Shown one piece after another: positions 31,701 through 57,893 of a DNA stretch of 64,000 bases. The position numbers and the translations under genes were made by a program. The stretch is from Eledone cirrhosa (lineage: Eukaryota): the NCBI GenBank assembly GCA_964016885.1, contig OZ024741.1, positions 171,306,001 to 171,370,000 of the forward strand, given 5' to 3'. Under the pieces are notes generated by a model, which was not told where the DNA came from, ran no database searches, and saw only the letters and a list, made by a program, of their open reading frames with translations. Every line of letters begins with the position of its first letter. Within the stretch, counting starts at the first letter, position 1.

Positions 31701-33378
31701 TTTTATGCATTGATGGAAACTGATGTCTTGTGCGTTACGCGAAAACGTTCCGGCTAGAGTAGTGTCTGGTTTTGACTGTTTTGTGGGCCATGTGGATCTG
31801 TTGGTTAAGGACAGCAATGGCAGTTTGTGTACTCAGGTAGCAACAGAGGTCAGTGTTACCTATTGGCCAGAAAGTTCTTCTGTATCTCTTTGACCAGATT
31901 TATCATGCATAAATATGTTTTTTTTTTCTGTTTAGGGAAAAGCTGGTGACTGGAATTGTTGTGGCTGCACTATTTGATAAAATTACGTTTGTTGGCGTGC
32001 TTGCGGCTGTTTGCTGTGTTTGGAGAAAAGTCTGGGCCAGTACTATTGCAGCAGAGGTGGGGGGATACTGTAGAATTGGTGATGGATAGGTTTCCCATTT
32101 TTATTTTTGTTGGTGAGTCGAGTCACCTGGAGATGATTAAAGGGATAATCTTGCTGCAGACATAATTTCTCGCGTTAGGAATAGATTTAAGGATTTCTTG
32201 TTATGAGCATGGGTACTGTTAAATGTGGTTTAGATTTAGAAATTGGTGGTGGTAATGGTGGTGGCAATGTTTTTGTGGGATGTACTTTGGTGTTGGCTGC
32301 GTCTTGCCCAGGTACATGTGTAAATTAGCAGTCACTGTTGCGTATTGCATAGCAGAATATTTTTAGATTGCGTTTGTATGATGTGCAGATGCCAATTTGT
32401 GTGTGTTTTGTAATTTTTTCCCGGGGCTGTGAAGTATGTTTTTGGTTTGAGATGGAAGAAGGGCAGGGGGAGAGGACAGCTTCATCACTAATCGGGGATG
32501 TAGTAATAGTATTAGATGTTGACAGTAATGATGTTTTGTCTCTTCAGGTAGTTTGAGAAAGTAACAAATTGAAAAAGCTGAAATGTAAAGGCTATACCTC
32601 AACGTGCTTCAATTTGCTCAGAATCTGTTTCTCTGAATGTTTCTTTTTATATATTTATGAGGATTTTGTTGCAATGTGCTTCAGACAAGAAGTATTTTCT
32701 GTTTGAGAAATACAAAACTATGTATTTATTAGAATGTTGATTTCATTCTCTGAACAATTTTTTTTTCATCATTTAAGAGACGTGTTGTCTAGTCATCCTG
32801 ATGTATCTTTTCTTTTTTTCTGTTCTTTACTGCTTTTGTTGTTGTTGTTTCTCTCTCTCTCTCTCTCTCTCTCTCTCTCTCTCTCTCTCTCTCTCTCTCT
32901 CTCTCTCTCTCTCTCTCTCTCTCTTCCTCTCGCTCTGGTGTGAGTGTGTGGGTTTCTGATTCTATGCAGATATTCAGGAACAATGTTTGTGCAGAAATTT
33001 ATGTTTCAAAAATGAGGAAATTGTACTTACAGCCTAATGAGTTAGAAATGATACTTTCCTGGGTTTATATATATATATATATATATATATATATATATAT
33101 ATATATATATATATATATATATATATATATATATATAGCAAATAGAGAAAATGTTTTAAAATAAATTTTAAACCATTCGCAGTACTTACTATATGTGCCG
33201 TTTGGACTGCTGCTATTTCTAGTGGCAGGACATTGACCTGTCCACCCTGCCTTTTGTCTTTGCACATGGCACCAGACAGAATTATTTCTTTCATCATTCG
33301 CTCTCATTTCGGAATGGTATTGTATGGCGTCAGTTTGTGATTTGAACTCGGGAATTTTATATTCTTCGAGGGAGAAGA

Positions 33379-33460
33379 GCCCTCTGAAGATTGCTCCCTT
33401 CTAAAAGGAAATCCGCTTGGATTTTCCGTTTATTCTGGAGCATGAAAACGTGGTAAAGGC
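33379..33460 (+). ncRNA. Type I hammerhead with extended stem II, family J
   Basis: gccct CTGAAGA ttgctcc..ggaaatcc gctt ggattttcc..ggagcat GAAA acgtgg TA aaggc; lies in element ~33137-33650 with an inverted left arm. Confidence 0.72.
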
Positions 33461-34500
33461 ACATATAGTAAGTACTGCGAATTTTTTAAAATTTATTTTA
33501 AAACATTTTCTCTATTTGCTAGACCTTGATTTTATATGTTCTGGTTTGTTAATTTATTAACACGCCATAGAACCACATTGGCATACGGTTGGATAACACT
33601 TGTTTCCAAATATGTATTTTTTACATGTAGGAATTCATACTTTATTATTATTATATATATATATATTTAGAAACACACAGATACATGCGGACACACACAT
33701 ATACTAACTACGTAGTCGAGGAATCTAGGAGCAGTTTAGGTATGATACATTTTATTACTAATTATGTCTAAATGTTTCTTCTCTCTTCATAATGTATATA
33801 TATATATATATATATATATATATATATATTCATTAGTTAAGCACAACAAGACCACAAATTTCACAAGGAAGACATTATTAAAAGATTGTCAACATATTTT
33901 AGTTTGATGTAAGGAATGTAGAGAATAATAATAATAATATTAATAAGAATAATGTCCATTTACAATTGTTTGGACGAAGAAAATCTTGTGATCTCTGTAT
34001 TACGGAAGCATATTACATAACTCTATAACGACCTCTACCGATTAACGATAGAACGGAGGTAACTATTAGCTGTCAACATCGAAGAGCTAATTCCTTCGCC
34101 AATAGAATTTTTGACCCAACTTAGTCATGTAGCTCCATTTTTACTTGTAGCTAATAAGTTAAATTGCTATGAACAACTCGATAATTATAAGTTACCTCCC
34201 CTACATTGTCTCTCAATTAAAAAAATTTTTAAATTAGCACTTAACTATAAACACCCACAATTTCTAATCTCTCGAGAAGTTACTTCCCCTGAAACCACCC
34301 GCTAATTAGTAAGGTAAATATGCCCTTTGGCAGTCATATTGTTACCCATAGACAGATCTTACACAATGCAGCCTCGACAGATGAATACTGCTTGATTATG
34401 GCTGACAACTGATGCAACCAAGACACCATAGTAAAAACCAATATATGGAACATTATGTTATGTAACATTATGTCATTATTTTAATCTATATTCCTTTGAA

Positions 34501-34620
34501 GTTCCGATGAGCCGCTCTGTCTTTTAAATATGTTAATTATTTTCAACTGAACCAGATCAATTATGATATATAGTCATCTGATCCAGAAATATAATATGGA
34601 GTAGCGAAACAATTGTAAAC
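34501..34620 (+). ncRNA. Hammerhead with ~95-nt stem II region, family K (core CCGATGA)
   Basis: gtt CCGATGA gccgctct...ggagtagc GAAA caattg TA aac; inverted arm at 33828-33970. Confidence 0.65.
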
Positions 34621-56000: not shown

Positions 56001-56800
56001 TGTTACATCTGATGCAGCTGCAGCATCTGTAGTAGTAGTTGTTGTTGTTGTTACTCTTGTTGCAGCTGCAGCATCTGTAGTTGTTGGTGTTACTTTCGTT
56101 GCAACTGCTCCATCTGTATTTGTTGTTGTTGCAGTTACATCTGTTGCAGCTGTAGCATCTGTATTTATTGTTGTTACTTTTGTTGCAGATGTAACATTAT
56201 TAGTTGTTGTTGTTGTTACTTTTGCTGCAGATGCAGCATCTGTACTTGTTGCAACTACAGATGCTGCATATATTATTGTTGATACTACTGTTGGTGCAAG
56301 GGCATTAAATACTGTTCTTGTTGTTACTGTTGTTTCAACTGCCGTAGTTGTAGTAGTTGCTACTGTTTCTGTTGTTGCAACTGTAGTAGTTGTTGGTGTT
56401 ATACTTTTTTGCAACTGCAGTTCTTATTGGTGTTGCAGTTGTTAGAACTAAAGTGACTGCAGTTATTGCTGTTTTTGTTACTGTTGTTGTTGCAACTACC
56501 GCAGTTGCAGTTGTTGCTTTTGCAACTACAACAGCTGCAGTTGTTGTTGTGTCTCTTATTGTAGCTACAGCAGATGTAGCTATTGCTGTTGTTATGCTTG
56601 TTGCATGTATAGCAGGTGTAGCTGTTGTTGTTACTATTATTACAGTTATAGAATATGTAGCTGTTAGTGTTGTTACGCATGTTGCAAGTACAGTAGATGT
56701 AGTTGCTGTTTTTGTTGTTGTTACGCTTGTTGCTGTTGCAACTGAAATTGTTGTTGTAACTGCAGCAGCTGCAGCTGTTTTTATCATTATAATTGTTGTT
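53090..56800. repeat. ~33-45-bp minisatellite (GTT)n-ACATCTGTTGCAGCTGCAGTATCTGTA, decaying toward 56800
   Basis: Many tens of units, each centred on TGCAGCTGCA. Confidence 0.93.
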
Positions 56801-57299
56801 GGTAAAGTTCTTGTATTTTAACACTAGGCAAAAACTAATTCAGCAGAACAACCTATAACTAAACCTTCGTAAACATGTTGCCATGTTAATTTTCTTCAGG
56901 CATGATATATATATATATATATATATATATAGGTTAAAACAAAAAACAAAAACAATAACGAAGAGTGCAGTACAAAGTGTTAGTATTAAGTTCACGCTTG
57001 AAAAAAAAACAAAAGGCCGGTGCCCCAGCATGGCCTCAGCCGGATGGCTGGAACAGGTAAAGGAATAAAATATATATATGACTAAATTATCCACCATGCT
57101 CTTACGTGTGTTTCTTCTTTTAAAGGCAGAAAGATATGGTTTAATAAAGATATAGTCGGTAATTCTAGTACCTTTAGCTGACTCATTTGTTGCTATCATG
57201 GTTGTGTTTGTTGTTATTTTTTTGTTTGTATAAATTTACAGTAGAATAACATTGCAAATATGTTTTAAATATAAATATATATATATATATATATATATA

Positions 57300-57893
57300 T
57301 ATAATCAAGGTTTAGCAAATAAGAAAAAGTTTTAAAATAAATTTTAAAAAGTTCACTGTACCTGCTGTAATTACCCTTACCGTACGGTTTCAAGTCTCAA
57401 AATAAATGGATAATCCATGCGGATATCCATTGAAAGGGAGACTCTCGTCAGAGGGTTCTTTTCACTCGGAGAATATAAAATTCGCGAGTTCAAATCACGA
57501 ACTGGCGCTATTCAAAATTGTTCCTGAGATGAGAGTGAATGATAAAGAAGCAATTCTGTCCAGTGCCGTGTGCAAAAATAGAAGGCAGGGGCGGAAAGGT
57601 CAATCTATTGCCACTAAAAATAGCAGCAGTTAAGACGACCAAAATGTTATCTCGACCAGGGGAGTTTAGTAATAATAAAGTATGTATCCCTACATGCAAA
57701 ATACATATAGGGACACATGTATTATCCAACCGTATGCCAATGTGGTTCAATGGCAAGTTAATAAATTAACGAGCCAGAACATATATAATCAAGGTTTAGC
57801 AAATAAGAAAAAGTTTTAAAATAAATTTTAATGTAATAAATTTAAATGTACCTGCTGTAATTACCCTTACCGTACGGTTTGAAGTCTCAAAAT
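57300..57893 (-). mobile_element. Family J tandem unit, 490-bp period
   Basis: ACCCTTACCGTACGGTTT at 57373 and 57863; homologous to 33200-33650. Confidence 0.85.
57373..57456 (-). ncRNA. Type I hammerhead with extended stem II, family J
   Basis: Minus strand: accct CTGACGA gagtctc..tggatatcc gcat ggattatcca..gagactt GAAA ccgtacgg TA agggt. Confidence 0.9.

Follow-up and report, generated by a model that had tools for sequence, protein, structure and literature searches.

The window analysed here, a stretch of 64,000 nucleotides from contig OZ024741.1 (positions 171,306,001 to 171,370,000), contains two copies of a repeat, family J, that carries a predicted hammerhead ribozyme motif. We regard it as probable that family J is a non-coding, non-autonomous hammerhead repeat of 490 nt, of the Penelope-like element (PLE) type and belonging to the class of non-LTR (long terminal repeat) retrozymes, whether its template was linear or circular. 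The reading that we favor, with slightly less than even confidence, is that the unit was copied into (TA)n sequence by a PLE reverse transcriptase-endonuclease from a linear transcript that ran head-to-tail beyond a single unit. Such a transcript would account for arcs of different phase without any circle. The window, with a GC content of 30-42%, 128 (TA)6+ tracts making up 6.4% of the bases, and fragments of retrotransposon open reading frames (ORFs), appears from these traits to be animal-type DNA.

The family J unit and its two copies

Unit positions are numbered with u1 as the first base after the predicted hammerhead cut. A BLAST search of the two copies against the window reveals just two loci of family J outside microsatellites, copy A and copy B (Table 1), which show identities of 80.2% over 344 nt and of 88.1% over 168 nt. 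Copy B (57895-57297, minus strand) runs from the 3′ half of a hammerhead through the tail, a 29-nt linker, the head and a hammerhead into the beginning of the tail again, i.e., from approximately u459 through one full lap and on to u81, or 1.2 head-to-tail laps. Two motifs give its period as 490 nt, and two motifs past a 6-nt indel give 484. The resulting terminal direct repeat is approximately 110 nt long; in it the laps differ by four substitutions and one indel in 107 columns, three of the four substitutions falling in one patch. The first lap also holds a local 15-nt duplication (57817-57846, minus strand) in place of 9 nt of the unit, a later change at the DNA level.

The forward arm of copy A (33199-33653, plus strand) has the order head, hammerhead, tail, and is an arc of approximately 0.93 unit in a phase other than that of B. 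The module orders reported in an earlier note on this DNA are thus confirmed for both copies, as is the period of 490; that note overlooked an inverted arm of A, where 33137-33200 is an inverted copy of 33458-33521 with two substitutions in 63 columns. The joins at the cut site and the linker are seamless in A and B. The tail-to-head junction is absent from copy A, and within the window this join is seen in B only.

When the unit is circularised it has a GC content of 0.363, and its longest ORF beginning with ATG encodes 23 amino acids in the sense and 76 in the antisense direction. No organisation of LTR, primer-binding site and polypurine tract was noted in it, the latter two not having been searched for specifically, and among the window ORFs and Pfam matches no reverse transcriptase or GIY-YIG ORF adjoins either copy. 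The circularised monomer folds better than all of 60 dinucleotide shuffles (z -4.6 sense, z -4.5 antisense), the predicted fold consisting of branched local hairpins. All four outer ends of the two copies abut (TA)n, flanks in which a target-site duplication (TSD) is unreadable.

Table 1. Positions of the family J copies, their parts and flanks, and of the other hammerhead units in the window
Feature	Coordinates	Strand	Remarks
Copy A inverted arm, u3-u64	33137..33200	-	5′ end ~2-3 nt from predicted cut; 3′ end enters left (TA)n
Copy A forward arm, u231 through cut site to u201	33199..33653	+	Without linker u202-230
Copy A degenerate type I hammerhead	33380..33460	+	Predicted cut after 33455
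(TA)n tract left of A, 71 nt	33065..33136	.	Shorter tract at ~33654-33667 on other side
Copy B first partial lap: hammerhead 3′ half (G12 to C) and tail start	57781..57895	-	Direct repeat of 57297-57405
Copy B tail with long predicted hairpin near 57690-57725	57667..57780	-
Copy B 29-nt linker, tail to head, u202-230	57638..57666	-	Shared by other J copies in public reads
Copy B head, u231-u411, predicted hairpins	57457..57637	-
Copy B complete type I hammerhead	57373..57456	-	Predicted cut after 57378
Copy B 3′ end, u1-u81	57297..57377	-	TA-like end merging with (TA)n target
(TA)n tract 5′ of B	57896..57915	.	Second tract at ~57275-57296
Unit K, 552 nt	10272-12106		Two head-to-head arms of ~920 nt, 1.7 laps each
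Unit K, short two-arm copy	59645-59834		Shares u75 end
Unit L, 443 nt	29420-30282		Two arms; minus arm 1.27 laps, starts at u13
Unit M, 376 nt, first copy	18010-18575		1.5 laps; 3′ end u221
Unit M, second copy	42571-43385		Two arms; 3′ end u221

The hammerhead motif

A descriptor for type I hammerheads matched the window eight times, compared to a mean of 0.13 in 30 shuffles, and one of these matches is the complete motif of copy B (57456-57373). It possesses a stem I of 5 bp, a stem II of 7 bp with an inner 11-bp stem, and a palindromic stem III and loop; the stem III palindrome is shorter in the sequence type of A than in that of B. The fold of this region gives z -4.1 (0 of 200 shuffles), and that of the corresponding region of copy A z -0.9 (33 of 200). 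The hammerhead of copy A is not matched by the descriptor and is defective (positions in the standard hammerhead numbering): there is a C-A mismatch in stem I, a U-U at 10.1-11.1, and C15.2 is replaced by A. The first half-motif of copy B is without the CUGANGA box, and its G12 has become C. Copy B therefore has one complete hammerhead and one half motif, and copy A a single degenerate one; since neither has two complete motifs, neither could presumably release a monomer by itself.

The claim that the stems covary between the copies holds in this alignment of two sequences. Six of 26 named pairs are changed on both sides, four of them in the stem that reads TGCTCC/GGAGCA in one copy and AGTCTC/GAGACT in the other, and four of the 26 are broken, all in A. 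Eight of 500 shuffles reached the covariation score, which was obtained from the two sequences only. No window match attained the gathering score of Rfam; around A and B there were only chance-level matches, none to a hammerhead family at E values up to 10.

Family J in public reads

A search of sequencing runs listed nine, none of them recorded as RNA. Four were placed on 57306-57892 at 80% likeness: X1 (1736 contigs) and X7 (2501 reads) of organism label A, X4 (8 contigs) of label B, and X5 (16 contigs) of label C. X7 is a reduced-representation (restriction site-associated DNA, RAD) library, the depth bins of which were summed by hand; 24 of 1770 pieces and 24 of 303 loose ends were listed, and no piece spans the whole of 57306-57892.

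Among the eight X1 pieces listed, two (57557-57721 and 57562-57742) bridge the linker with at least 31 letters on each side. Their 19 and 27 mismatches to B mark them as other copies of family J. The linker is also crossed, with less sequence on one side, by one more X1 piece and by a piece of X4, and one X5 loose end is a variant of it. The linker is covered in X7 at a depth of 221-298, the median of the 19 bins in the non-duplicated part being 298, and seven X7 reads jump back 484 nt, i.e., round the unit. Family J is thus a high-copy family in which the tail-linker-head join is present in several copies. The join is not peculiar to B, since other copies in the reads also run from tail through linker to head; together with the absence of a sense ORF from ATG longer than 23 amino acids, this upholds the proposal that the tail joins back to the head with no coding sequence between.

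The phase at which copy B ends (u81) recurs in 13 X1 contigs that run into (TA)n at a loose end before 57781, and the sequence type of copy A is seen, as loose ends, in 39 contigs. The listed loose ends show subfamilies of J with different stem II and tail-hairpin sequences; those at 57361, 57435, 57441 and 57709 represent at least three further subfamilies in which stem I, stem II and the tail hairpin differ, the pairing apparently being kept. Two measures were set aside. The peaks at which X7 reads begin and end were rejected as biological ends, five of the seven listed coinciding with AATT sites of B, and the summed depth of X1 was rejected as an unreliable measure of copy number. Exact-pattern scans found no J loci in viral contigs, metagenome contigs or prokaryote genomes.

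Other hammerhead units in the window

The remaining seven descriptor matches fall to three units, K, L and M, that are unrelated to J. A sequence link among the four was sought and not found, the best matches (E 0.003-0.04) being AT-rich stretches of 22-42 nt. Family J is not special within the window, since these three unrelated units share with it the (TA)n targets and the head-to-head arms, with up to 1.7 laps. In the seven hammerhead-repeat insertions, 13 of 14 outer ends touch (TA)n, compared to 8% of random flanks, and five of the seven consist of head-to-head arms with their 3′ ends outward. None of the five K, L and M insertions adjoins an ORF. The K insertion at 10272-12106, with four intact-looking hammerheads and a likeness of 97-99%, is apparently young, and it illustrates copying over several laps better than family J does.

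The 3′ ends recur at preferred sites: u75 twice in K, u221 twice in M, and u81 in J (copy B and the 13 X1 contigs). The description of the J copies as circular permutations of a unit of about 490 nt therefore needs to be narrowed. They are arcs of different phase; there are just two of them in the window, and permutation at random phase is rejected because the 3′ ends recur. The J copies are arcs with preferred 3′ ends.

Some further traits of these units were noted. Short tandem repeats in unit L include two octamer-type motifs; the first M copy is without approximately 60 nt found in the second and its cut triplet is changed, and M has one octamer-type motif. Palindromic insertions with inverted arms and no descriptor match lie at 12148-12577, 22126-22353, 28937-29428, 33826-34752, 37054-37654, 43720-44017 and 61315-61702, and these may be PLE-type insertions of other families.

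Nature of the template

A template longer than one unit is needed, because the unit closes on itself without coding sequence and arms of more than one unit are found in K, L and M. This much of the earlier proposal, reverse transcription of a circular or multimeric RNA, stands. Circularity cannot be demonstrated from these copies, as the DNA would look the same if it had been copied from a linear tandem transcript.

The 5′ ends of the arms hint that the template was a linear, ribozyme-cut multimer rather than a circle. Five of 12 arms, their ends being estimated by BLAST, begin just after a predicted cut (u3, u7, u13, u19 and approximately u23), where 0.7-1.25 are expected under four null models (P 0.0003-0.005); with the second arm of one insertion dropped, the count is 4 of 11 (P 0.002-0.02). 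Linear cut RNA fits better than a circle because of these five ends. The minus arm of L and the arm of the first M copy cross one cut site and end just past the next cut site upstream, as expected of a linear RNA that was cut at its 5′ end and left uncut at an internal site.

It is possible, at a clearly lower level of confidence, that the template was instead a circular monomer of the same element, as in the published retrozyme model and in the stronger form of the earlier proposal, served by a PLE helper, with two hammerheads excising the monomer, ligation closing it, and the reverse transcriptase lapping past its start. The seamless joins noted above for A and B would agree with this, as would the 1.7 laps of both K arms, the stable fold of the J monomer, and the fact that seven of nine long arms end away from the cut site; circles are also described as abundant in other animals (PMC7229834). 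The laps within an arm are nearly identical (three substitutions in 369 columns in the K plus arm, six in 362 in the K minus arm, four in 107 in copy B), but a homogeneous tandem transcript predicts identical DNA as well, and for this reason lap identity was not accepted as proving a circle. Arms that halt directly past the cut, as five of 12 do, are not accounted for by a circle, and two of them, in L and M, have first crossed another cut; no arm exceeds 1.7 laps. The predicted fold, being made of local hairpins, does not require closure.

Proposed mechanism

For copying from a linear multimer, we envisage the following series of events. A tandem master locus would be transcribed, and hammerheads with palindromic stem III, probably acting as dimers, would cut only some of the junctions, leaving RNAs that are cut at the 5′ end and still uncut at internal sites. 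A GIY-YIG endonuclease would then nick both strands of a (TA)n tract, and each nick would prime reverse transcription at a preferred AU-rich site within the RNA past the cut (approximately u64-81 or u200). Synthesis would halt at random or at the 5′ end of the RNA, and the two arms of cDNA would be joined head-to-head.

Parts of this scheme have counterparts in a PLE of the anole, the protein of which nicks and extends both strands of AT-rich DNA, uses uncleaved RNA and does not need cleavage in vitro (PMC11167929). According to the same source, its internal start lies 111-118 nt into the ORF and its hammerhead cut at +26, i.e., the start is approximately 85-92 nt past the cut; the 3′ ends of J and K at u64-81 are a loose parallel to this. 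A broken 3′ fragment in the window (19538-20300, minus strand) is GIY-YIG-like; for 19541-19924, Atlas gives 0.96 to a cluster of which 31% of the members bear PF01541. This suggests that PLEs are present in this genome. We take it to resemble the endonuclease region of a Neptune-type PLE. The descriptor finds no hammerhead downstream of it.

Several points weigh against this scheme. No tandem master array of J is seen in the window, and the longest arm in any of the insertions is 1.7 laps. The GIY-YIG-like fragment is without a Pfam match, a search for longer homologous proteins came back empty, and a link between J and the 3′ region of the fragment was looked for and no similarity found. Long arms alone end near the cut in just two of nine cases, which is not significant (P 0.09-0.20), and the clustering at the cut site is a post hoc result, the 26-nt window having been picked after viewing the data and four families pooled. 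Inversion joints in reads also lie away from the cut, namely X7 57584/57811 (u284/u57, three reads) and the loose end of one X5 contig at 57478 (u390). The 10.1-11.1 pair, a conserved G-C that is present in PLE hammerheads (PMC4209133), is G-U in B and U-U in A; one X5 contig carries C at 11.1, and on this basis the sequence suggests that the G-U of B arose by CpG decay. Finally, no ends at the cut site are reported in RNA sequencing of the anole PLE (PMC11167929), and the retrozyme RNAs of coral, mussel and axolotl are described as half or mostly circular (PMC7229834).

Autonomous and DNA-level alternatives

A further alternative, which we consider unlikely, is that the J unit is a tandem repeat of the pseudo-LTR (pLTR) or untranslated region of an autonomous PLE, and that A and B are 5′-truncated insertions that stop short of its ORF. 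The whole anatomy of the insertions is PLE-like, and so are the long helix II, short helix I and palindromic stem III of the hammerhead (PMC4209133); PLEs can, moreover, bear tandem hammerheads, as those of axolotl do (PMC7229834). The reads are also short, the listed pieces being of up to 181 nt. Opposed to this is the finding that no ORF lies beside A, B or any of the five other hammerhead-repeat insertions. Attachment to Penelope ORFs, raised in the earlier note as an outcome that would count against it, is seen for neither copy in the window, and among the 24 of 303 loose ends listed there is no dominant branch from J into other sequence. Nor does read depth drop at the linker, and no best-supported X7 loose end falls at u201-231. 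Furthermore, the ORF of the anole PLE begins inside the hammerhead (PMC11167929), whereas ORFs of J that begin with ATG in the sense direction encode at most 23 amino acids.

A purely DNA-level origin, in which the repeat in B is a local tandem duplication or satellite fragment, the inversion in A comes from fold-back repair, and RNA plays no part in the permutation, is very improbable: the window is indeed rich in palindromic fragments in (TA)n, unequal crossover has been discussed for retrozyme arrays (bioRxiv 10.64898/2026.07.22.740005), and the 15-nt duplication in B indicates that DNA-level events occur here, but the linker lies only at the join and is common to other copies and to two other organism labels, so that B cannot have arisen from an A-like copy by a single duplication, the hammerhead stems covary, and four unrelated hammerhead units share the same anatomy and recurrent 3′ ends.

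Relation to known elements

Family J probably belongs to a known class, and the interpretation proposed for it has already been published. Metazoan non-LTR retrozymes, their circles and a model of more-than-unit reverse transcription were described by Cervera and de la Peña in 2020 (PMC7229834; see also PMC7761336), and the more-than-unit model was put forward for PLEs in 2014 (PMC4209133). Partial tandems, inverted 5′ copies, a bias towards microsatellites and (TA)n, and non-autonomous head-to-tail PLEs are reported in PMC8557442. Li, Clavereau and Pollet (2026; bioRxiv 10.64898/2026.07.22.740005) relate retrozymes to pLTRs and describe unit lengths of 51-972 bp, with many of the monomers solo; of nine dimers that they tested, one was cleaved.

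Like the metazoan non-LTR retrozymes, J is a non-coding head-to-tail unit with one type I hammerhead, a GC content of 36% and a stable fold; it likewise has many dispersed copies of monomer size together with more-than-unit copies, and the GIY-YIG-like fragment may represent a PLE in the same genome. At 490 nt it is longer than the 170-400 nt given for retrozymes in PMC7229834, and within the 51-972 bp of the 2026 preprint. In contrast to the canonical retrozyme hammerhead with its loop-loop interaction, the motif of J is PLE-like (80 nt, with an extended stem II) and matches no Rfam model. Unlike retrozymes with two hammerheads, neither J copy has two complete ones, and both fit the monomer class of the preprint. 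In the portions of PMC7229834 and the preprint that were compared, there is no description of inverted arms, of insertion into (TA)n or of 3′ ends at preferred sites, all of which J shows.

With the pLTRs of PLEs that have minimal or palindromic hammerheads, including Poseidon PAc of the anole (PMC4209133; PMC8557442; PMC11167929), J shares the short helix I, long helix II and palindromic stem III, and also the partial tandem, inverted 5′ arm, (TA)n target, and 3′ ends at preferred sites tens of nt past the cut. It differs in that its copies have no attached ORF, the unit joins to itself, and a sequence link between it and a PLE was not found. Another parallel is offered by MRC1 and other non-autonomous Chlamys elements (PMC8557442), which are ORF-less PLE derivatives with pLTRs and head-to-tail insertions in microsatellites; they form a green algal clade that is described as mostly without canonical hammerheads, whereas the J unit includes one. 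Newt satellite 2 and the schistosome hammerhead repeats (PMC7229834, PMC6765202, PMC8490949) are, like J, tandem or dispersed repeats of a few hundred bases with a palindromic stem III suited to cleavage as dimers; J differs from them in sequence and size, and the window holds no long J array. Plant LTR retrozymes have type III hammerheads in LTRs of 300-400 bp and a 4-bp TSD, and J has a type I hammerhead and a terminal repeat of approximately 110 nt.

The enzyme that moves non-LTR retrozymes, the choice between a circle and a linear multimer as template, and the in vivo role of PLE hammerheads are treated as open questions in the portions of the literature covered (PMC7229834, PMC7761336, PMC11167929 and the 2026 preprint). 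That literature, most subscription papers and supplements falling outside the search, yielded no map that places the ends of retrozyme insertions with respect to the cut. The nature of the template lends itself to a purely computational test, through the positions of arm ends on the unit, in a genome that has at least four abundant units and insertions cleanly bounded by (TA)n. Tentatively, the genomic copies described here may record the transposition intermediate of animal retrozymes: in four unrelated units the insertions would be PLE-type products of two arms, the 3′ starts of which are internal and fixed and the 5′ ends of which pile up after the cut.

Neighboring features

Approximately 5 kb of Thr/Ala-rich, mucin-like tandem repeats of coding type occupy 51800-56800 on the minus strand in several broken frames, and copy B lies approximately 500 nt upstream on the same strand. 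Beside B is a short ORF-like fragment (57945-58412, minus strand) without a Pfam match, a 76% similar piece of which occurs at 47340-47502; it presumably resembles the C-terminal endonuclease region of non-LTR elements of the CRE/SLACS type. Reverse transcriptase fragments of LINE type are found at 26377-26853 (minus strand) and 38950-39612 (plus strand), the former matching RVT_1 with an E value of 1.9e-6, just under the curated cut-off.

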